This document shows positions 1 through 7,808 of a DNA stretch of 7,808 bases, in pieces (position 1 is the first letter of the stretch; each line of letters starts with the position of its first letter). Made by a program: the position numbers and the translations under genes. Below the pieces are notes generated by a model, which saw only the letters and a list, made by a program, of their open reading frames with translations, was not told where the DNA came from and did no database searches. Source of the DNA: a virus (Duplodnaviria; Heunggongvirae; Uroviricota; Caudoviricetes); IMG/VR virus record IMGVR_UViG_2648501165_000010; one strand, given 5' to 3'.

Positions 1-309
1 CGCTTCACGCGTATCGTGTTTCACATCCTCGATCTCACGTAACGCCGCACGACGACCAGTTTTAAAGTTCGTATCCAGCTGACCGATAATGGTTGCGCTA
101 ATCGCATTAATTTCTGACGTAAACGCGGACAGCGCAGGCTGATTACGCAGTACCTGTTCGATCTTCGCTTTCTAGGAAGCCTCACATTCACCATCTGCAT
201 AGGCCACCAGGTAGGCGGCGTTAATCACCACCTGTGCCAGATCGCGTTTTTCAAACTTTTTAATTTCCGTTGCCGCTCTGCGGGCTTTTTTACCAAAAAT
301 ACCAAACAT
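1..309 (-). CDS. TerB-like late-region protein, 3' partial, interrupted by an in-frame TAG at 172-174
   Basis: ATG at 307-309 with AAGGAA about 8 nt upstream. Reads MFGIFGKKARRAATEIKKFEKRDLAQVVINAAYLVAYADGECEAS (45 codons, 175-309), then TAG, then the same frame stays open for 57 more codons (KAKIEQVLRNQPALSAFTSEINAISATIIGQLDTNFKTGRRAALREIEDVKHDTREA) to the window edge. The AYADGE...EKAKIE pattern resembles the TerB family by recall only. The track ORF start at 456 is an upstream in-frame extension without a better RBS. Confidence 0.5.
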
Positions 310-479
310 CGTGACGTTCCTTTGGGTGGGTGAGCCAACGCCCGGGAGCGATCTGCCCACAGAGAAAGTCACACTGACCACTCCGTAAGCTCCCCCCCGA
401 AAGGCTCTGTGGTTGGTATGCGCCGGGCGTGGCGCGGATACAAAAAAGGTCCGCAAAAGCGAGCGAGGGAAAATAAGTG

Positions 480-556
480 TGGTGCGTTGTACTGGGTTCG
501 AACCAGTGACCGATTGCTTAGAAGGCTGGCGTTCTATCCCGATGAGCTAATGGCGG
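480..556 (-). tRNA. Hybrid tRNA-like element, probable pseudo-tRNA (3' half tRNA-Arg-like with encoded ACCA, 5' half like the 904-979 tRNA-like gene)
   Basis: Reverse complement gives T-arm ACTGG-TTCGAAC-CCAGT, acceptor 3' strand ACAACGC, discriminator A and CCA. The 5' strand CCGCCAT cannot pair with that acceptor, and the anticodon stem CCAGC/GCAAT does not pair. Positions 483-525 are about 90% identical to 817-860. Confidence 0.3.
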
Positions 557-577
557 TTGGTGGCCCTTGCTGGATTT
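557..577 (-). tRNA. 3' terminal fragment of a tRNA-Ile(CAU)-like gene, truncated by the gap
   Basis: Reverse complement ends AAATCCAGCAAGGGCCACCA, the same 3' end as at 981-1010, and runs straight into the N run. Confidence 0.35.
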
Positions 578-652
578 NNNNNNNNNNNNNNNNNNNNNNN
601 NNNNNNNNNNNNNNNNNNNNNNNNNNNNNNNNNNNNNNNNNNNNNNNNNNNN
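578..652. other. Assembly gap (75 N)
   Basis: Run of n characters. Confidence 0.97.
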
Positions 653-779
653 GTAGGATGATAACGTTACGAAATCAATGTTGCAAGAGTTCACAAATTC
701 ACTGATTCAAAATTATTCTTGTAAAAAATCTTTTAACGTCAGGCACAAAGAGCCTGTACATAGATTTGTGTAATTGCCT

Positions 780-789
780 NNNNNNNNNN
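780..789. other. Assembly gap (10 N)
   Basis: Run of n characters. Confidence 0.97.
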
Positions 790-813
790 AAAAGCGAGCC
801 GGGAAAATAAGTG

Positions 814-890
814 TAGCGCGTTGTACTGGAGTCGAACCAGTGACCGATTGCTTAGAAGGCAATTGCTCTGTCCTGCTGAGCTAACAACGC
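814..890 (-). tRNA. tRNA-Arg, anticodon UCU (reads AGA/AGG), phage argO-like; 3' CCA not encoded (GCTA)
   Basis: Perfect cloverleaf on the reverse complement: acceptor GCGTTGT/ACAACGC, D-stem GCTC/GAGC, anticodon stem ATTGC/GCAAT with loop CTTCTAA, T-arm ACTGG-TTCGACT-CCAGT, discriminator G. The three bases after the discriminator are CTA. Confidence 0.7.
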
Positions 891-903
891 AGAATACCGA
901 TAA

Positions 904-979
904 TGGACCACCACCGGGGACTCGAACCTCGCACACTCAACTTAAAGGGTTGACGCTCTTTCCTGATGGCTAGTGGCGG
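904..979 (-). tRNA. Atypical tRNA-like gene with encoded CCA; anticodon loop CCTTTAA (UUU with C33), weak D-arm; possibly degenerate
   Basis: Acceptor CCGCCAC/GTGGTGG pairs with one G-U, T-loop TTCGAGT, anticodon stem TCAAC/GTTGA, discriminator T then CCA. The D-stem does not pair canonically and one T-stem pair is A-C. Confidence 0.35.
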
Positions 980-980
980 T

Positions 981-1010
981 TGGTGGCCCTTGCTGGATTT
1001 GAACCAGCGA
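981..1010 (-). tRNA. 3' part of a tRNA-Ile(CAU)-like gene (ileZ-like); 5' part lost in the gap
   Basis: Reverse complement TCGCTGGTTCAAATCCAGCAAGGGCCACCA matches the T-arm, acceptor and CCA of E. coli minor tRNA-Ile2 by recall. The gap follows at 1011. Confidence 0.45.
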
Positions 1011-1020
1011 NNNNNNNNNN
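1011..1020. other. Assembly gap (10 N)
   Basis: Run of n characters. Confidence 0.97.
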
Positions 1021-1056
1021 TTACGAAATCAATGTTGCAAGCATACAAAAATCACC

Positions 1057-1101
1057 CTTATCTCCTCCACCAGCGCATTCACCATGTCTATCCGAGATAA
1101 G
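1057..1101. repeat. Inverted repeat (8-bp perfect stem CTTATCTC/GAGATAAG, 29-nt loop) between the tR'-like terminator and the tRNA cluster
   Basis: Direct reading of 1057-1064 against 1094-1101. Confidence 0.5.
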
Positions 1102-1107
1102 TGGCAC

Positions 1108-1134
1108 AAAAAAACCCGCTTGTGGGCGGGTTTT
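1108..1134 (-). terminator. Bidirectional intrinsic terminator, tR'-like for the late transcript
   Basis: Stem CCCGC (1115-1119) / GCGGG (1126-1130), flanked by A7 on the plus strand (7 U on the minus transcript) and TTTTGTTT on the other side. Confidence 0.7.
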
Positions 1135-1185
1135 GTTTGCTTTTGCCATCACGTACAAAATCGGCAAAATATCAGATTTGCATGA

Positions 1186-1214
1186 AATATATGCCTTTCA
1201 ATCTACTTTTGCAA
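1186..1214 (-). promoter_or_regulatory. Candidate late promoter (pR'-like) overlapping the stop codon of the Q-like gene
   Basis: Minus strand reads TTGCAA, a 17-nt spacer, then TATATT, about 45-70 nt upstream of the terminator. This geometry matches lambdoid pR'/qut/tR' regions. Confidence 0.4.
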
Positions 1215-1887
1215 CACTTTGCTTTGAAAATGCCGCCTTTTGTTTTGAACGTGTTCTCATTACAAATAATAAAGCCTCACTATCCAGTCGGTGAAAAATG
1301 TGTTTCATTGCAACCCAGTGACGAGTAAATGTTTTGGACCAGTTTTTAGTTGTCACTCCCGCCAGTAATGCCAGCTCCTGATATTCATAACCTTCCCCAC
1401 CAAAAAGTTCTGCTTTTACTGCCTGCGCCGCCAGCCAGATTAATTTTTTCAGGCGTTCCTGCGTTTTCCCAGCAATTTTTCTGGTACCGGATTGAGTATT
1501 AAATTCATTCCACGCCCACTGTGTTATCGCGATCTGATATTCCCAACAAATACTCCCGCTGTAACACCACAACAACCAGGCTTTATGATGTTCTTCAAGA
1601 GACAGAACAGCCCGCCGCCACGATGATGTCGAAAACTCAACCGGACTGACCAGAGGAATTGACGTCACCTTCGCCAGCGATTGCTTTCCCGGGATTGGTG
1701 GATTATCCCGCGTTATCATTTTTCCAGTCACTTCATCGCGGTACCGGATTTTTTTTCGCCTGTAACGCCCTGTATCGAACATGGCATTCTCCTGCCAGGC
1801 TTCAAGCTGACCTTTTGTTGCCCCACTCAAATCAGCGGTGGCGATAATGAGCTGCTCACGCACAAACTGTAAATAGTGGTTATTCAT
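1198..1887 (-). CDS. Putative late-gene antiterminator, Q-family-like (229 aa), assigned mainly by position
   Basis: ORF directly downstream of rusA with an ATGA stop/start overlap and GGAG 6 nt upstream of the ATG at 1885-1887. It is followed by the promoter, terminator and tRNA cluster. The track's start at 1893 is a GTG two codons further upstream. No similarity to lambda Q was recognised. Confidence 0.5.
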   Translation of the reverse strand: MNNHYLQFVREQLIIATADLSGATKGQLEAWQENAMFDTGRYRRKKIRYRDEVTGKMITRDNPPIPGKQSLAKVTSIPLVSPVEFSTSSWRRAVLSLEEHHKAWLLWCYSGSICWEYQIAITQWAWNEFNTQSGTRKIAGKTQERLKKLIWLAAQAVKAELFGGEGYEYQELALLAGVTTKNWSKTFTRHWVAMKHIFHRLDSEALLFVMRTRSKQKAAFSKQSVAKVD

Positions 1888-2249: not shown

Positions 2250-2519
2250 TCATGCTTTCCACTTCAGGACACCCGAATTTCTCGCGTGCATTAAAAAACG
2301 AATCAGCAACAACAGCTGGCTGCCGTGTTTTTCTTCAAAATCTTTTACCCCGGCGTGCAGTTCGTTATGACATTTACGGCACAGCGGAATAACAAACAAA
2401 TCATCAGCCTTTGTTCCCATCCCTCCCAGTCCATGACCAATGATGTGATGCGGATCATCTGCCTGATTACCGCACGTCATGCATTTCTGCGTTTTTACCC
2501 AGCGCGTGTATACAGGCAT
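2250..2519 (-). CDS. Small Cys/His zinc-ribbon (HNH-like) protein, paralogous to the C-terminal module of the 2603-3505 gene; YbcO/DUF1364-like by recall
   Basis: MPVYTRWVKTQKCMTCGNQADDPHHIIGHGLGGMGTKADDLFVIPLCRKCHNELHAG... The open frame continues upstream to the gap at 2592 with homology to the ydfU-like internal region (VVSIAVDPESP versus VVSITVDPESP), so the true 5' end may lie in the gap. Confidence 0.5.
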   Translation of the reverse strand: MPVYTRWVKTQKCMTCGNQADDPHHIIGHGLGGMGTKADDLFVIPLCRKCHNELHAGVKDFEEKHGSQLLLLIRFLMHARNSGVLKWKA

Positions 2520-2592
2520 CTCTTCCCGTTGTGGTTTCTGGCGCTGGAGATACTGAGCCGGTGACTCCGGATCAACGGCAATGCTGACCACC

Positions 2593-2602
2593 NNNNNNNN
2601 NN
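2593..2602. other. Assembly gap (10 N) of unknown true length, between two paralogous zinc modules
   Basis: Run of n characters. The reading frame of the conserved domain changes across the gap. Confidence 0.95.
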
Positions 2603-3505
2603 TGCTTTTGTTCCCATTCCGCCCTGCCCGTGACCAATCAGATGATGCGGATCGTCGGCTGGCATACCGCAGCAAGCACACGGCTGTGTCTTAACCCAAC
2701 GTGTGTATTTCTCCTTAACCCAGCGGCGACGTTTAGGCAGCTTCATGAAAGATTCCGGAGACTCTGGATCAACGGTGATGCTTACCACCGTCTTTTCCTG
2801 TGGTGATTTTTGTTGCTGGTGGGCGTAAGGCAACGGTGCAAGATTTTTTGTGCGTTGTTTCAATATGCTGGTGGCGGTCTGCTCTCCCGGTACGATGTCG
2901 CTTTCGCGGTACACCGAGCAGATTTTTTCCGCTGGTAATCCCAGCGAACGACGCGATACAGCCTCAGGTAGTGCATCCACCACCTGATTGCAGACCGCCC
3001 ACCAGGATAATTCAGCCAAAGATAATTCCCGCTCCTGCGTACCGCTTATTGCGTGACGGATGACGTCAATCACCCATGCTGTCAGATTTTGTTGAGCAAG
3101 CAGCTCCAGTGATTCCGATGTCTGGTCACGCAGTTGGTTGTCGCAGTGCCAGCACAACACCATTGCGCCGGTACCATAACGGTGAATGACTGTTTCAGTG
3201 TGATGGTAATCGCCATTAGGCCACTGGCAGGATGTAACATGACGTAATAGCCAGTCGGACAATGCGCCAACGCCGCCAGCAGCACGAATCACCCGTTCGT
3301 TACTAAAAAACGGCAGCAATGTTTTGTCTTCCGCCAGCGGCTGGCGAACGGCAGGAACGACTCCGGATGGCAGATTACGCATGCTTTTTGGTTCCGGTTC
3401 CACCAGCACTCGAGGATTATGAAATATCTGTATGGATTCACGGCCCGGCTTAAGGACCACCAGCCCAAGCTCAGGCACCAGAACAGGTCTAAGTAATACC
3501 CGCAC
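2603..3505 (-). CDS. ydfU: YdfU-like DUF968 prophage protein, 3' end truncated by the gap
   Basis: Long open frame ending in ...WVKTQPCACCGMPADDPHHLIGHGQGGMGTKA at the gap. A GTG start at 3503-3505 with GGAGG just upstream would give about the 349-aa size I recall for K-12 YdfU. Alternative starts are GTG 3544 (track) and ATG 3385. Confidence 0.6.
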
Positions 3506-3506
3506 G

Positions 3507-3785
3507 TTACCTCCAGATCCGTTGCTGGAAAGTGCGGGACGCACGTGGTGGGCGTTCGGAATAAGGCAGCCTGACAGAGATTATCCAGTGCCGATAGTCG
3601 AGACTGAGAGCTTTCTTAACCTCGAACCCGCGCCTGCGGTAAGAATGAATCAGCCATTCGGCCTGTTCTGCAGTGCATGGAGGGTGCTGGAACCATTCAG
3701 ACTTGAATGCGTGAGAATACCGCCCGTGCGTGCAGGCAAGAACGGGCGAATTATCAGAATTGTAATATTTTGCGTTGCGTGCCAT
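3507..3785 (-). CDS. Hypothetical prophage protein (92 aa), no family recognised
   Basis: ATG with GGAG upstream; TAA stop one nucleotide before the proposed ydfU-like GTG; same orientation as its neighbours. Confidence 0.55.
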   Translation of the reverse strand: MARNAKYYNSDNSPVLACTHGRYSHAFKSEWFQHPPCTAEQAEWLIHSYRRRGFEVKKALSLDYRHWIISVRLPYSERPPRASRTFQQRIWR

Positions 3786-3851
3786 CGGTTTTCTCCGGTG
3801 GCACGGTGTTACTCAGCGGGAGTTCAGCCCCGCGCAAGATTGTAGATGAGT

Positions 3852-4103
3852 TTATTCTCCTGAAAAAGCAGAAAAGCCAGCTTTTATTCCGATCTCTTTC
3901 AATGCCTGTAATGAAGTGACAAACTCACCTTCGCGCAAGATAAATCCGTCCGTGACCCGAGCATCCACAAAATTAATTAACGCAGCCCCATTCTTTCGCA
4001 AACACATAATGCGGTAATGACTAACAAGATTTCCATTTTCAACGCACACAGCATAGAGGCCATCTTCACAAAAAATTTTACGCAGTTCTTCGATGTTCAT
4101 CAT
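3852..4103 (-). CDS. rem: Rem-like small prophage protein (83 aa)
   Basis: 83-aa ORF with GGAAGGA SD, at the position and size of K-12 Qin rem (between ydfU and hokD) as I recall it. Confidence 0.65.
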   Translation of the reverse strand: MMNIEELRKIFCEDGLYAVCVENGNLVSHYRIMCLRKNGAALINFVDARVTDGFILREGEFVTSLQALKEIGIKAGFSAFSGE

Positions 4104-4181
4104 CAGAATCCTTCCGGATAATTAGCTCTCCCCTTTAAGGGACCATCCCTCTTATCCCTGCGCGCTACTTAAGTATTTTTG

Positions 4182-4211
4182 ATTCTATTCCGGCGCCGTC
4201 CGGAACTTCAA
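4182..4211 (-). promoter_or_regulatory. Candidate rem promoter with a palindromic spacer (possible operator)
   Basis: Minus strand TTGAAG, 18-nt spacer, TAGAAT. The spacer 4188-4205 is the inverted repeat TTCCGG-N6-CCGGAA. Confidence 0.35.
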
Positions 4212-4225
4212 ACGCGTTGAAAATA

Positions 4226-4249
4226 AAAACAAAAACCCGCCGAAGCGGG
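4226..4249 (-). terminator. Intrinsic terminator ending the relB-relE-hokD transcript
   Basis: Minus strand CCCGC-TTCG-GCGGG followed by TTTTTGTTTTT, about 70 nt after the hokD stop. Confidence 0.7.
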
Positions 4250-4319
4250 TTAAGTGCGGGTGCGTTGAGGATGCCTGACACATCAGAGGTGGCGAGGGAT
4301 TTCTCCCCCGCCGGGTCTC

Positions 4320-4475
4320 TTACTCCTCAGGTTCGTAAGCTGTGAAGACAGCGACCTCCGTCTGGCCGGTTCGGATTCGTACCTCGCAGAGGTCTTTCCT
4401 CGTTACCAGTGCCGTCACAATGACGGTTAAACAGATGACGATCAGAGCGATTAATATCGCCTTTTGCTGCTTCAT
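4320..4475 (-). CDS. hokD: Hok-family membrane toxin HokD (RelF), 51 aa
   Basis: Translation MKQQKAILIALIVICLTVIVTALVTRKDLCEVRIRTGQTEVAVFTAYEPEE with AGGAGAAG SD. The six-frame track misses it because it lists only the antisense ORF. Confidence 0.9.
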   Translation of the reverse strand: MKQQKAILIALIVICLTVIVTALVTRKDLCEVRIRTGQTEVAVFTAYEPEE

Positions 4476-4546
4476 AGCCTGCTTCTCCTGTCAACGCAAA
4501 GCAGAAGTGTCACCTTCGGTGCGAAACAGAGATGTCATGCTTTGGT

Positions 4547-4834
4547 TCAGAGAATGCGTTTGACCGCCTCGCTATATACTTCCGAGCGTTCTCTTTTCCC
4601 AACAGAAATCACGAAAACGACAACTTTCTCGTCTATAACCTGGTATACAAGGCGATAGCCTGAAGACCGGAGCTTAATCTTGTAACAATCAGGCATACCA
4701 CGGAGCTTGTTTGCTTCAATCCGGGGTGACTCAAGTACTTCAACCAGCTTCTTTTTCAACTGTTCACGTACCGTCGAGCCCAGCTTTCGCCATTCCTTTA
4801 GTGCCCGCTCGTCAAAATCCAGAAAATACGCCAT
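4547..4834 (-). CDS. relE: mRNA interferase toxin RelE (95 aa)
   Basis: MAYFLDFDERALKEWRKLG...VISVGKRERSEVYSEAVKRIL is essentially the K-12 RelE sequence by recall. The start overlaps the relB stop. Confidence 0.95.
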   Translation of the reverse strand: MAYFLDFDERALKEWRKLGSTVREQLKKKLVEVLESPRIEANKLRGMPDCYKIKLRSSGYRLVYQVIDEKVVVFVISVGKRERSEVYSEAVKRIL

Positions 4835-5073
4835 CAGAGTTCATCCAGCGTCACACGTACTGGCTTAGGATTACGAAGCCGTTCTTTCACTATCTCCACA
4901 AGTTCAGCATCTTCATCACTCAGGAGTGTCTGTTTGAACGGCAAGCGTTCATTGTCAGCGATATACTCGAGCATGAGACGAAGCGCTTCAGAAGGAGTTA
5001 CACCCATTTTTTCAAGCGCGGCGTAAGAACGCGCTTTAAGTTCATCGTCAATACGCAGGTTAATGCTACCCAT
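4834..5073 (-). CDS. relB: Antitoxin RelB (79 aa)
   Basis: MGSINLRIDDELKARSYA...RNPKPVRVTLDEL matches K-12 RelB by recall. Confidence 0.95.
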   Translation of the reverse strand: MGSINLRIDDELKARSYAALEKMGVTPSEALRLMLEYIADNERLPFKQTLLSDEDAELVEIVKERLRNPKPVRVTLDEL

Positions 5074-5084
5074 GTCTTACACCT

Positions 5085-5137
5085 CTTGTAATTACAAATG
5101 TCATTACAAGTATCGCACTACAACATGCTTAGGGCAA
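5085..5137 (-). promoter_or_regulatory. relBE promoter and relO-type palindromic operator
   Basis: Minus strand TTGCCC, 17-nt spacer, GATACT, followed by the near-palindrome CTTGTAATGACATTTGTAATTACAAG (5085-5110), AGAGGTG SD, and the relB ATG. Confidence 0.7.
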
Positions 5138-5403
5138 GTCACGAAGGAAGTCAGAAAGTAGTCGTAAGAACGGTGATCACTGTCCGCTTTGTGCCAGGAG
5201 CAGCCATTGCTAAGTCCATCCTGTATTGTGCAGGTCAGCTCGTTTTTAAAGAGTCCGGCCATCATCTTACTGGTACAGACACCATATACTTTGTGACGGT
5301 CAGGCTACATATGCACAACTCAACTTATTCATCTATTTTTTGCTTTAGCATGTCAGTGTTGCTTTCTCGTCGGCGGGTGAGCGGTGACCTGACCTGTCGA
5401 TAA
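5098..5403 (+). CDS. ydfV: YdfV-like ORF (101 aa), doubtful as a real gene
   Basis: Position and length match the ydfV ORF annotated in K-12 Qin as I recall it. The ATG lies inside the relO palindrome and has no SD. Confidence 0.3.
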   Translation: MSLQVSHYNMLRASHEGSQKVVVRTVITVRFVPGAAIAKSILYCAGQLVFKESGHHLTGTDTIYFVTVRLHMHNSTYSSIFCFSMSVLLSRRRVSGDLTCR

Positions 5404-5555
5404 AGGAACGTAACACGTTTTATGCAACACCCGCATGCGGCAGAAAATTATTGCCGAACGTTTACCCCTGTCAACAAGCTTTACTTTCTGAGGCGCGCCA
5501 GCCCGCGAGGAAAACAATCTGAACATCAAACAATTAATGACACAAGAAATACGAT

Positions 5556-5582
5556 TAAAGATTTTTTTGTGCATGCCGATAG
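5556..5582 (+). promoter_or_regulatory. Sigma-28 (FliA) class-3 flagellar promoter for flxA
   Basis: TAAAGATT, 11-nt spacer, GCCGATAG against the consensus TAAAGTTT-N11-GCCGATAA, 24 nt upstream of the flxA ATG. Confidence 0.7.
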
Positions 5583-5605
5583 TGCTTTTTTAAAAGGAGA
5601 AATCT

Positions 5606-5938
5606 ATGTCTGTCACAATTCAGGGAAATACCTCAACCGTTATTTCAAACAACTCCGCCCCGGAAGGAACATCAGAAATAGCCAAAATCACAAGACAAAT
5701 TCAGGTGCTGACTGAAAAGCTTGGGAAAATCTCATCGGAAGAGGGGATGACGACACAGCAGAAAAAAGAAATGGCTGCATTGGTACAGAAGCAAATTGAA
5801 AGCCTCTGGGCTCAACTGGAGCAGTTGTTAAGGCAGCAGGCAGAGAAAAAGAATGAAGACGCGACAGTTCAGCCTGATAAAAAAGAAGAGAAAAAAGACG
5901 ATACAAATACCGCTGGCACCATTGATATTTACGTCTAA
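5606..5938 (+). CDS. flxA: FlxA (110 aa), FliA-regulated prophage protein
   Basis: MSVTIQGNTSTVISNNSAPEG...TAGTIDIYV with AAGGAG SD matches K-12 FlxA by recall. The middle is coiled-coil-like and the tail is charged (KKEEKKDD). Confidence 0.9.
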   Translation: MSVTIQGNTSTVISNNSAPEGTSEIAKITRQIQVLTEKLGKISSEEGMTTQQKKEMAALVQKQIESLWAQLEQLLRQQAEKKNEDATVQPDKKEEKKDDTNTAGTIDIYV

Positions 5939-5952
5939 GTGACAGCCGTATT

Positions 5953-5977
5953 GTGGCCCTCATCGGGCCACTTTTCG
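5953..5977 (+). terminator. Intrinsic terminator after flxA
   Basis: GTGGCCC-TCATC-GGGCCAC followed by TTTTCG. Confidence 0.6.
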
Positions 5978-6254
5978 CCATCAGCCTTTTCTTTAAAGAC
6001 ATATTATCTTTGTATCATTTCTGATAGTTAACATTACAAGATATAAGTAATGGACGCACTCCCAATTAGTCTATTTAAATCGCCACGAGTTTAACTGACA
6101 ACCCATGATCAATTATGAATTGCAACTATTTCTGTAGTCACTTTTGTGGGGACAGTCCACAAAACTGCCAACTTCCGCTTCTTGCTCTTAGCGGACATTA
6201 GCATAGGCTATTTACCATAACGCCTCATTACGCGCACCGCCCAGACTGACTCAG

Positions 6255-6320
6255 CGCGTTTCTGGCATATCCCCGGTAAAACAAGTAACAAACCACCCGA
6301 AAATGAACACCAGAAACGCG
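6255..6320. repeat. 11-bp perfect inverted repeat (CGCGTTTCTGG / CCAGAAACGCG) separated by 44 bp, about 55 bp beyond the transposase stop
   Basis: Direct reading of 6255-6265 against 6310-6320. Confidence 0.6.
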
Positions 6321-6329
6321 ACTTAAGAA

Positions 6330-7770
6330 TCTACCCTATGAATGGATATGCACTCAACCGAATCGATCTTGGTTTCAATCTTTTTTATCGGGATCAGGCT
6401 TCTTTTTAGGTAACTTCGGGGGCTTAACTTGCTGATGACTTTGCGTTCGGCGCGTAAGCCAGGGATGGTCAGCTTTAGGTTTAACATAGTATTTTGAGCG
6501 TAAATCAATACGGGCATTATCCACTCGTTCATGGACACTCTTTTCATCATCCAGTGGTATAGGCTCCGGGCCATCAACATACTTTTCCCAGCCCGGCGCT
6601 TTCCCGTCATACAGAACGTTAATTTCACCGTCAAAGTTCTCGCATACAGTAACAACCGAATGCCTAAGTCGATATCCCCGGCCCTCACTGCGTACCTGAA
6701 ACGCACTGCTTTTGTACTGGAAAGTGAGATTTTTAGACAGAACGCGCTTCGCCTGTAGGCTGAAGATATAACCCAGTTCCTCTTCAGAATGGTGCACATC
6801 AAGATGAGCATTATCAGTAGTACGAGGCGACGTAGCGAACCGGTTGTTATAGGCTTCAATAAAGGTCGGCAACCATGCATTTGCTGTTTCAATATCACTG
6901 ATATTCTGAAGCCGCATTTCTTTGACCAGCCTGTCCTGTAGTGTCTGATTGGCGCGCTCTACCCGCCCTTTTGCCTGCGGGCTGTTGGCATGGATTGGCT
7001 CGATGCCCAGTGTCTTTATCGCACGAGTGAACTGGGTCAGCTCACCTTCCCGCTCTGGGTTATTTACCCTGAATATACTGTGTCTATCAGAGTAGAGAGC
7101 GAGCGGTACGCCATGATCATTAAGGTAACCCCGGAGGGTTTCCATGTAAGCCCGGGTTGTTTCAGCAGGCACAAAACGCAACGCCATCAACGCACTGGTG
7201 GCATCATCAATGAAAACGATCAGTGTACATCTGGGGCCTCGATTTTCAAACCAGTCATGAGGTGAGCCATCAATCTGGATCAGTTCACCGTAAGATGGTC
7301 GTCGCATGCGGCGTTGATATATACGGGCAATTTTACGACGGCGTTCACGCCATAACCCCTCTTCTATCATCCACTTTCTGAGAGTTTCAACGGATAAAGA
7401 TAAACCGTGTATCTCGCGCAATTTTTCGCACGCAAACGTAGGTCCAAAATCAGCGTAACGGCCTTTGAGGAGTGAAATTACTGTTGCTCTGAATTCAGTA
7501 GAAAAGGAATTATTAGGACGCTTTCCACGTCGGTGGGAAACCAGACCAGAAGGCCCTTCATTTCTATACCGTTGCACCAGACGTTTAACCTGCCGAATAG
7601 AAATGCCAATGCGTGCCGCAGCTTGTTCCTGAATAATCTGAAGTCGGTGGAGTTCCTTATGACTCATCGTAACAGTCTCTTTGATCATGAAAAATCCCCC
7701 AGAGAATTGTCTGGGGACATTTTAGAATGGTTCAAAGGGGACATTACAGCTTGGTGTTAACAATAGCCTG
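6330..7770 (-). mobile_element. IS-like element carrying the transposase; ends not resolved
   Basis: Transposase gene present, but no terminal inverted repeats could be matched between the left and right flanks inside the window. Confidence 0.25.
6375..7688 (-). CDS. DDE-type transposase/integrase (437 aa), N-terminal HTH plus rve-like core; IS481/ISNCY-like, family unresolved
   Basis: N-terminus IGISIRQVKRLVQRY looks like a helix-turn-helix. Candidate DDE residues are in QIDGSPHDW, LYSDRHSIF and SPQAKGRVERANQTL. The SD GGGGGA lies inside a 6-bp hairpin (CCCCAG/CTGGGG, 7697-7716). Confidence 0.85.
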   Translation of the reverse strand: MIKETVTMSHKELHRLQIIQEQAAARIGISIRQVKRLVQRYRNEGPSGLVSHRRGKRPNNSFSTEFRATVISLLKGRYADFGPTFACEKLREIHGLSLSVETLRKWMIEEGLWRERRRKIARIYQRRMRRPSYGELIQIDGSPHDWFENRGPRCTLIVFIDDATSALMALRFVPAETTRAYMETLRGYLNDHGVPLALYSDRHSIFRVNNPEREGELTQFTRAIKTLGIEPIHANSPQAKGRVERANQTLQDRLVKEMRLQNISDIETANAWLPTFIEAYNNRFATSPRTTDNAHLDVHHSEEELGYIFSLQAKRVLSKNLTFQYKSSAFQVRSEGRGYRLRHSVVTVCENFDGEINVLYDGKAPGWEKYVDGPEPIPLDDEKSVHERVDNARIDLRSKYYVKPKADHPWLTRRTQSHQQVKPPKLPKKKPDPDKKD

Positions 7771-7808
7771 CTTCTCCGTGCCTTTCGGCACGTAAGAGGC
7801 TAACCTAC

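Follow-up and report, generated by a model that had tools for sequence, protein, structure and literature searches.

The record IMGVR_UViG_2648501165_000010 of the IMG/VR virus collection is a stretch of 7,808 nucleotides (nt), called the window below, and the present work concerns the transfer RNA (tRNA) genes and tRNA-like elements gathered at its positions 480-1010. All elements of note in this tRNA island belong to the minus strand and lie downstream of the gene for the late antiterminator Q (1198-1887, minus strand) and of a rusA gene, both annotations being carried over from the related loci L001 and L002. The sequence is interrupted by four runs of N, one of 75 (578-652) and three of 10 (780-789, 1011-1020 and 2593-2602). 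The original prediction regarded the whole region as one rearranged cluster, produced either by recombination between paralogous tRNA genes or by the collapse of a tandemly duplicated block. Our analysis points to another composition: window 480-1010 very probably represents the late-operon tRNA islands of two lambdoid prophages from a draft Escherichia coli assembly, which were put in series by a scaffolder. They are designated here as locus A (window 1-577 and 653-779) and locus B (window 790-1010 and from 1021 into Q), and their tRNA elements, together with the interruptions, are as follows.

480-556, minus strand: hybrid pseudo-tRNA of locus A, with 5′ 36 nt (521-556) of argN(UCG) type and 3′ 41 nt including CCA (480-520) of argO(UCU) type
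521-526, minus strand: crossover hexamer GCCTTC in the anticodon stem and loop, common to argN and argO and forming the junction of a 90-nt deletion
558-577, minus strand: final 20 nt of the locus A ileZ (tRNA-Ile2, anticodon CAU), with 100% identity to L003, in which the Prokaryotic Genome Annotation Pipeline (PGAP) gives tRNA-Ile; cut by a gap
578-652, no strand: assembly gap of 75 N, replacing 60-61 nt, namely the remainder of ileZ and a few bases
780-789, no strand: scaffold join of 10 N between the upstream side of locus A and the downstream side of locus B, with flanks mapping to different prophage types
790-813, minus strand: argO 3′ trailer of locus B, with 790-800 in a terminator-like hairpin followed by a T-run
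817-890 (with CUA at 814-816), minus strand: argO of locus B, canonical tRNA-Arg(UCU) according to ARAGORN and Rfam
904-979, minus strand: X, a degenerate tRNA-like gene in the second position of locus B, called tRNA-Lys(ttt) by ARAGORN and having an encoded CCA
981-1010, minus strand: last 30 nt of ileZ of locus B, 100% identical to L001 (tRNA-Ile); cut by a gap
1011-1020, no strand: assembly gap of 10 N, replacing 64 nt, namely 46 nt of the ileZ 5′ part and 18 nt that include the -10 element of a promoter-like site
2593-2602, no strand: scaffold join of 10 N between the ydfU/DUF968 allele of locus B and the ydfU allele of the cryptic prophage Qin

The properties of argO agree with those predicted, that is, a clean tRNA-Arg(UCU) followed by CTA instead of CCA. 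ARAGORN called tRNA-Arg(tct) at 816-890, the Rfam tRNA model matched 817-890 with 68.1 bits and every pair standard, and the minimum free energy (MFE) fold of argO alone is a cloverleaf. Alignment with Shiga toxin (Stx) phage Stx2a_F349 sets its 3′ end GCTA (...CGCG-CTA) against ...CGCG-CCA, a single C-to-T change, so that the encoded 3′ CCA is lacking in the window’s argO while it is present in X and in the hybrid. Running ARAGORN on the region, as had been proposed, thus returned the Arg(tct) and Lys(ttt) genes and gave no tRNA call at 480-556. The two tRNA-Ile-like 3′ ends noticed beside gaps both proved to be the 3′ end of ileZ, each next to an N run: the sequences at 558-577 and 981-1000 do not differ, the 1-nt spacer occupies positions 557 and 980, and both ends agree exactly with the complete gene of L001, L003 and L004, which is annotated as tRNA-Ile by PGAP and as ileZ in AP012530. 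Full-length ileZ scores 72.5 bits in a related locus, and the Rfam model reads 984-1010 as the 3′ end of a 5′-truncated tRNA (17.8 bits).

Comparison with complete genomes assigns the two parts of the region to different prophages. Locus B is 100% (790-1010) and 99.9% (1021-2592) identical to L001 (1656-1876 and 1941-3512, respectively), where the gene order is Q, tRNA-Ile, X without annotation, tRNA-Arg and a TerB pseudogene, and this prophage type was found in about 508 complete E. coli genomes. For locus A, window 1-577 is 98.4% identical to positions 3562-4138 of L003 (strain 14EC047), with the part 440-577 at 100%, and window 653-779 is 100% identical to L003 4199-4325, located between a gene of a different Q family and ileZ; the order there is this Q-family gene, a 127-bp leader, tRNA-Ile, the hybrid without annotation and a TerB gene. 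The entire context of locus A (1-779) is present in 17 complete genomes. Window 1-526 also aligns to L001 1202-1726 with 98.3% identity, and the TerB-family gene is near-identical in both prophage types, hence itself a repeat. Two genomes were found to possess both loci, which are 352 kb and 896 kb apart: in FORC_042 locus A is at 3.101 Mb and locus B at 2.747 Mb, and in 2013C-4830 they are at 2.441 Mb and 3.337 Mb, respectively. Among 5,426 complete E. coli genomes no record covered at least 80% of window 300-1200, and among 125 fetched loci none had N runs and none matched the entire window. Since the two halves reside in different prophage types and are colinear in none of these complete genomes, 480-1010 is not taken as one rearranged locus, and a collapsed tandem duplication of an Ile/X/Arg block finds no support.

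The positions and lengths of the N runs are in line with this composition. Both ileZ gaps fall inside a repeat that is exactly the same in loci A and B, about 83 nt comprising ileZ with a few bases on its flanks, and the gap lengths disagree with the sequence that they replace in otherwise identical closed genomes: the counterpart of the 75-N gap in L003 is 4139-4198, i.e., 60 nt, locus A spans 764-765 nt in the 17 complete genomes vs. 779 in the window, and locus B spans 1857 nt in the best-matching complete genomes listed vs. 1803 in the window. Between ileZ and the TerB/trailer region that the two loci share, locus B is distinguished from locus A by a 221-nt piece (790-1010), and a 127-nt piece (653-779) constitutes the locus A-specific leader. 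The breaks thus coincide with repeats common to the joined pieces, whose flanks are separate loci in closed genomes, and there is no real adjacency across 780-789. Similarity between lambdoid prophages is known to make draft assembly of these regions unreliable (PMC4587872). The assembler would have broken at ileZ because this gene is an exact repeat common to the prophages, and the small allele-specific contigs of 127 and 221 nt would then have been linearised with placeholder N runs; the source was presumably a short-read scaffold. The fourth N run is a further scaffold join of paralogous prophages. Around 2593-2602 a part of ydfU/DUF968 is present twice across window 2407-2790, as a PPompW-like allele and a Qin allele, which are about 82-88% identical, with about 185 nt of homologous positions on each side of the join, and the counterpart of window 2604-2653, L001 3327-3376, lies upstream of L001 3512, where contig 4 ends. 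With this join to the Qin allele, the window is therefore a chain of at least three prophage fragments.

The same evidence bears on the possibility that the block is real, i.e., that inter-prophage recombination produced a tandem, partly duplicated order Q-ileZ-X-argO-leader-ileZ-hybrid-TerB with junctions hidden by the N runs. Lambdoid prophages do recombine, all pieces have the same orientation and a plausible order, and IMG/VR locus L122 (about 2318-9319), where Qin-type hokD-relBE-flxA genes of 99.8% identity to the window adjoin a Q/rusA/ydfU module of 97% identity to locus B, exemplifies genuine mosaics between these prophage families. However, the pieces are colinear in none of the 5,426 complete genomes; a search of species-representative genomes for the end of the 127-bp piece followed, after 0-30 nt, by the first bases of the argO trailer gave no match; the argO trailer has no evident homology to the far end of the 127-bp leader that might mediate such a join; every gap is at a repeat boundary and has the wrong length; and the same scaffold also sets overlapping ydfU paralogues side by side. 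A true rearrangement is therefore considered highly unlikely. Several circumstances nevertheless weigh against the serial joining of two islands by a scaffolder. No complete genome found exceeds 98-99% identity to window 1-439, and the exact source prophage is thus unrepresented; the scaffolding history is one that we infer from the pattern alone; an assembly of mixed strains or of a metagenome could instead be the origin of the window; a unique true rearrangement in the source strain would be compatible with its absence from 5,426 complete genomes; and the 221-nt contig begins with a shared stretch of only 10 nt, less than the typical k-mer overlap. With the two-prophage composition taken as the most probable one, the case is a caution that short allele-specific contigs of paralogous prophages separated by placeholder N runs may mimic a rearranged or duplicated locus, the artefact being given away here by gaps that sit on an exact repeat and have wrong lengths.

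While the adjacency of the hybrid to the other island is an artefact, the hybrid itself is genuine. It was predicted to be incapable of folding, and all estimates agree: besides the lack of an ARAGORN call, the Rfam tRNA model gave 19.7 bits for 483-556, below the gathering score of 29, with 4 of 7 pairs broken in the acceptor stem and 3 of 5 within the anticodon stem, and the hybrid’s MFE of -11.3 kcal/mol is no better than that of shuffled sequences (z = +0.96), the predicted fold having no acceptor stem. A tRNA cannot be formed from the hybrid, which is best regarded as a relic. The identity of about 90% to the Arg region, 3′ trailer included, was measured as 91.7% for window 790-860. The supposed composition from two tRNA halves held only in part. 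The last 41 nt match argO of F349 at 39 of 41 positions, which agrees with the proposed Arg-type 3′ half, but the 5′ half does not come from the atypical neighbor X, being closer to canonical argN: its 36 nt match F349 argN at 34 positions and argN of another haplotype at all 36. Formation of the hybrid from local X and argO, tried as a candidate origin by pairwise alignment, is therefore rejected.

The event that produced the hybrid can be followed to the base. Its position 30 is of argN type and position 37 (T) of argO type, and its diagnostic bases are A25, C28, C61 and A74. An intact ileZ-argN(UCG)-argO(UCU) haplotype with all of these bases was found in four IMG/VR loci (L051, L076, L083 and L093), and a simulated deletion of 90 nt in this haplotype, from GCCTTC of argN to GCCTTC of argO, reproduced window 440-577 at 138 of 138 positions. 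Because of this exact reconstruction, the hybrid is taken as the result of a one-unit deletion (one gene and one spacer) through a 6-nt shared stretch. A junction directly after CCGCCA, which was suggested by the MAFFT alignment, was rejected, since both the pairwise alignment and the simulated deletion place it at GCCTTC. Such an ancestral deletion would have fused the adjacent argN and argO, destroying both Arg tRNAs and leaving ileZ as the sole intact tRNA. Thus recombination between paralogous tRNA genes stands as the origin of the hybrid but not as an event in this locus, because the fusion did not take place in the source locus, which inherited the hybrid as an allele. Where paralogous tRNA genes are adjacent, unequal or short-homology recombination is familiar as a source of hybrid genes, as for the tandem tyrT copies of E. 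coli. Like them, the present one has lost exactly one repeat unit (90 nt, gene and spacer) with the junction in a stretch that both genes have; unlike them, its partners are only distantly similar, so that the 6-nt shared stretch gave rise to a non-folding pseudogene instead of a working hybrid gene.

The distribution of the hybrid leaves next to no probability that it is an assembly chimera of mis-joined argN and argO reads. It does adjoin a gap in a fragmented assembly and its halves do match two neighboring genes, but the identical 138 nt (window 440-577 at 100%) are found in complete genomes of independent projects, the class of at least 99% identity comprising 23 complete-genome records, and the junction is also present in 7 IMG/VR contigs. 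Its context is constant, with ileZ immediately preceding it and the same trailer and TerB coming next, and the whole 1-779 context is present in 17 complete genomes. Taken together, these occurrences refute the chimera. These two counts (23 and 17) were used since hits of short-query BLAST were confounded by the joining of separate argN and argO pieces. As a single piece the hybrid was absent from 50,697 deposited phage records, and its junction was not found in species-representative genomes. It is unannotated in the RefSeq records examined, and in L003, the one locus A examined in full, ileZ is the sole annotated tRNA. The outcome named in advance as fatal to a rearranged cluster, i.e., a closed assembly with a single clean island and a chimeric copy coming from mis-joined reads, is therefore realized in its first half, each prophage having one island, and not in its second.

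Comparison with the ileZ-argN-argO clusters of Stx and other lambdoid phages, which had been recommended, identified the same type of island in decayed states. As in Stx2a_F349 (AP012530.1), the island is downstream of Q and upstream of late genes, on the same strand and in the same gene order; the ileZ part is identical, argO is 2 bases off, and both have spacers of 1 nt and 13 nt and the trailer in common. The differences are the lack of an intact tRNA-Arg(UCG) middle gene in the window (degenerate X in locus B, fusion of argN and argO in locus A), the CUA end of argO in locus B instead of CCA, and the TerB-family pseudogene, without stx genes, that comes after the window’s islands. Locus B accordingly has the position on the Q side, ileZ as the first gene and argO as the third, with no intact argN as the second; locus A has the position, next to the other Q family as seen in L003, and ileZ, whereas the 3′ half of argN is deleted and only the 3′ half of argO is left. 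To the PPompW/O55:H7-type island (LC567818.1 and relatives) locus B corresponds without any difference, at 100% over 790-1010 and 99.9% over 1021-2592 with Q and rusA included, and only the annotation names vary: Met/Lys/Arg in PPompW records (ARAGORN-style) vs. Ile/(nothing)/Arg in PGAP. The window thus holds a known lambdoid ileZ-argN-argO island in two decayed variants plus a scaffolding artefact, which is ordinary prophage decay. In 120 IMG/VR loci having the ileZ 3′ end in common, classified by what comes next, the following arrangements were encountered.

Intact argN(UCG) and argO: 8 of 120 loci
The window’s X (D-stem minus 1 nt) and argO, mostly with CTA: 13 of 120 loci
X′ (a relative of X with intact D-stem) and tRNA-Thr(UGU), the commonest arrangement: 60 of 120 loci
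Copy without the entire anticodon arm and argO (class d): 26 of 120 loci
Hybrid: 6-7 of 120 loci
Other: 6 of 120 loci

Among the relatives the middle gene has therefore decayed by three routes, namely a D-stem point deletion, the loss of its anticodon arm, and fusion with argO through the 6-nt stretch. The CTA allele is present in 12 of the 13 loci with the X and argO type of island. The remnant of class d is 66 nt long (CCGCCACTAGCTCATCAGGAAAGAACGTCACCCTGTGCGAGATTCGGAGTCCCCGGTGGCGGTCCA), keeps the acceptor, D and T arms without the anticodon arm, precedes an intact argO and gets no ARAGORN call. The value of the locus is in giving a base-exact example of decay in the middle of the lambdoid ileZ-argN-argO island, and nothing fundamental is changed by it for the biology of phage tRNAs.

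Gene X corresponds to its predicted description: it encodes CCA, and its anticodon loop is CCUUUAA, with C33 and a UUU anticodon, vs. CUUCGAA in F349 argN. The poor D-arm is explained by the alignment with F349 as the loss of one base of the D-stem (GC-C vs. GCTC). The T-stem has an A.C mismatch, and in a search over 571 nt the Rfam tRNA model gave no match to 904-979 even at E<=10. PGAP leaves X without annotation, while LC567818 names it tRNA-Lys. Judging by its sequence, X is a relative of argN and goes back to the lineage of Arg tRNAs found in the argN position. Where the loop is CUUCUAA, as in rare relatives, the gene is a clean tRNA-Arg(UCU), and for this reason the UUU/C33 loop looks like two substitutions in an Arg(UCU) ancestor. 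The related gene X′ has the same UUU/C33 loop with an intact D-stem and passes the Rfam threshold with 44.4 bits. Throughout 13 distinct full-length members of the family the cloverleaf is kept, with 95.6% of cells paired and 4 pairs changed on both sides, and this retention fits descent from working tRNAs; among the variants of X′, 2 of 7 single changes break D-stem pairs. X′ is directly followed by tRNA-Thr(UGU) (73.8 bits), as in IMG/VR locus L114 at 3742-3970 on the minus strand. The PARIS nuclease AriB has Lys(UUU) and Thr(UGU) as its two main targets, and X′ deviates from the AriB site, whereas the Thr(UGU) gene does not.

These features may suggest that X, or at least X′, is a working non-canonical UUU tRNA kept for escaping anticodon nucleases aimed at host tRNA-Lys(UUU). 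Phage T5 evades such cleavage by means of variant tRNA copies mutated around U36AAUC|A41 (PMC11464382, PMC12409363), anticodon-loop changes in phage tRNAs were proposed as a general means of evasion (PMC10264068), and lambdoid islands downstream of Q may carry Asn(GUU) with Thr(UGU) (PMC3636060). Like the T5-type tRNA-Lys(UUU), X and X′ have the UUU anticodon in a stem-loop that differs from the one of host tRNA-Lys, with UAAGUU where the AriB site is UAAUCA, and X′ stands mostly beside tRNA-Thr(UGU), the pair being the commonest arrangement after ileZ (60 of 120 loci). The score of X′ above the Rfam threshold and the cloverleaf kept in its family with 4 compensatory pairs may also be counted in favor, as may the Asn(GUU)+Thr(UGU) pair that other lambdoid phages have at the same place (PMC3636060). 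If this were true, the tRNAs that temperate lambdoid phages have downstream of Q would include anti-defence ones, such as virulent T5 also carries.

Decay is nevertheless the more natural explanation. U33 is near-universal in elongator tRNAs, and C33 together with C35U look like disabling changes on a tRNA-Arg(UCU) ancestor with the loop CUUCUAA. For a gene of Arg-tRNA descent, the UUU anticodon and the altered AriB site of X and X′ are trivially expected. The copy in the window lacks a D-stem base and is invisible to the Rfam model, two of the seven single changes among X′ variants disrupt D-stem pairing, the high identity between copies may merely reflect recent shared ancestry, and the neighboring phage tRNA-Thr(UGU) retains the AriB site UAAUCA. 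Unlike the T5 tRNA, X is of Arg-tRNA descent with C33 and further damage in the window. As C33, Arg ancestry, the unchanged AriB site of Thr(UGU) and the damage of the window’s copy all point to decay, maintenance of X or X′ as a functional UUU tRNA appears very improbable. Hardly more credible is the particular version in which X would be a damaged copy of a widespread X′ serving as nuclease-resistant substitute or decoy for host tRNAs cut by PARIS AriB or PrrC. The resemblance to nuclease-evading tRNAs may be kept as a lead only.

Despite its CUA end, argO would probably still be matured, by 3′ trimming followed by the action of the host CCA-adding enzyme. In phage T4 several tRNAs lack an encoded CCA and are matured by RNase BN/Z and the CCA-adding enzyme. 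Like these, argO is well formed, and with the 3′ end GCUA a functional product would need trimming and CCA repair or addition; unlike T4, where this is the norm for several genes, here it is one C-to-T change vs. CCA-encoding sister alleles. The remaining features of the two loci are as follows.

1-309, minus strand: 5′ part of a TerB-family gene, a pseudogene with an in-frame TAG stop, downstream of the tRNA island
653-779, minus strand: leader upstream of ileZ on the Q′ side of locus A, with promoter-like TTGCAA-17-TATCAT at 686->658
1021-1214, minus strand: late-regulatory leader of locus B, with the -35 element of the promoter-like site next to ileZ at 1040->1035, a tR′-like terminator hairpin at about 1111-1134 and a pR′-like promoter at the Q end (1214->1186)
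1198-1887, minus strand: late antiterminator Q of locus B (PPompW/O55:H7-type prophage), 99.9% identical to L001 and L002

In the records of L001 and L002 the last of these is annotated as ‘bacteriophage antitermination protein Q’ or ‘phage late gene regulator Q’. Relying on record annotations, on knowledge of lambdoid late regulation and on general statements in PMC3636060 and PMC7946995, one may suppose that the intact tRNAs are made from Q-antiterminated late transcripts, possibly also from a promoter of their own, and that they would provide for the reading of codons rare in E. coli (AUA, AGA/AGG). A promoter-like TTGCAA-17-TAT(C/T)AT stands in both loci, with the -10 hexamer ending 5-9 nt before ileZ (L001 1932-1960; L003 4204-4232), so in lysogens the island may have transcription of its own besides Q-dependent read-through. 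On the opposite side of the island, the terminator-like hairpin that comes after argO in locus B (L001 1666->1649, window 790 corresponding to L001 1656) reads GGCTCGCTTTTGCGGGCC followed by TTTTTTGTAT. The TerB gene is described by PGAP as ‘tellurite resistance TerB family protein, internal stop’ and is a pseudogene in complete genomes downstream of both types of island. Weak Rfam matches at 1105-1206 (Phe, Trp and Leu leaders, isrJ and isrK; in the leader of locus B at 1105-1189) and at 398-473 are sub-threshold and were dismissed as family members, since they cover only a terminator hairpin with a U-run.

The rest of the window, 2603-7808, is the Qin region, which is 99.9% identical in 737 complete genomes; in L005, the sole one examined in full, it continues into ydfT and cspF/cspB and no tRNA is annotated nearby. 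This segment contains ydfU, a small hypothetical gene, rem (3852-4103), hokD (4320-4475), relE (4547-4834), relB (4834-5073), ydfV (5098-5403), flxA (5606-5938), ydfW and an ISNCY-family transposase gene (6645-7688, partial according to PGAP). A sub-threshold Rfam match to isrK (24.9 bits, E=0.035) adjoins hokD at 4230-4311 on the minus strand.

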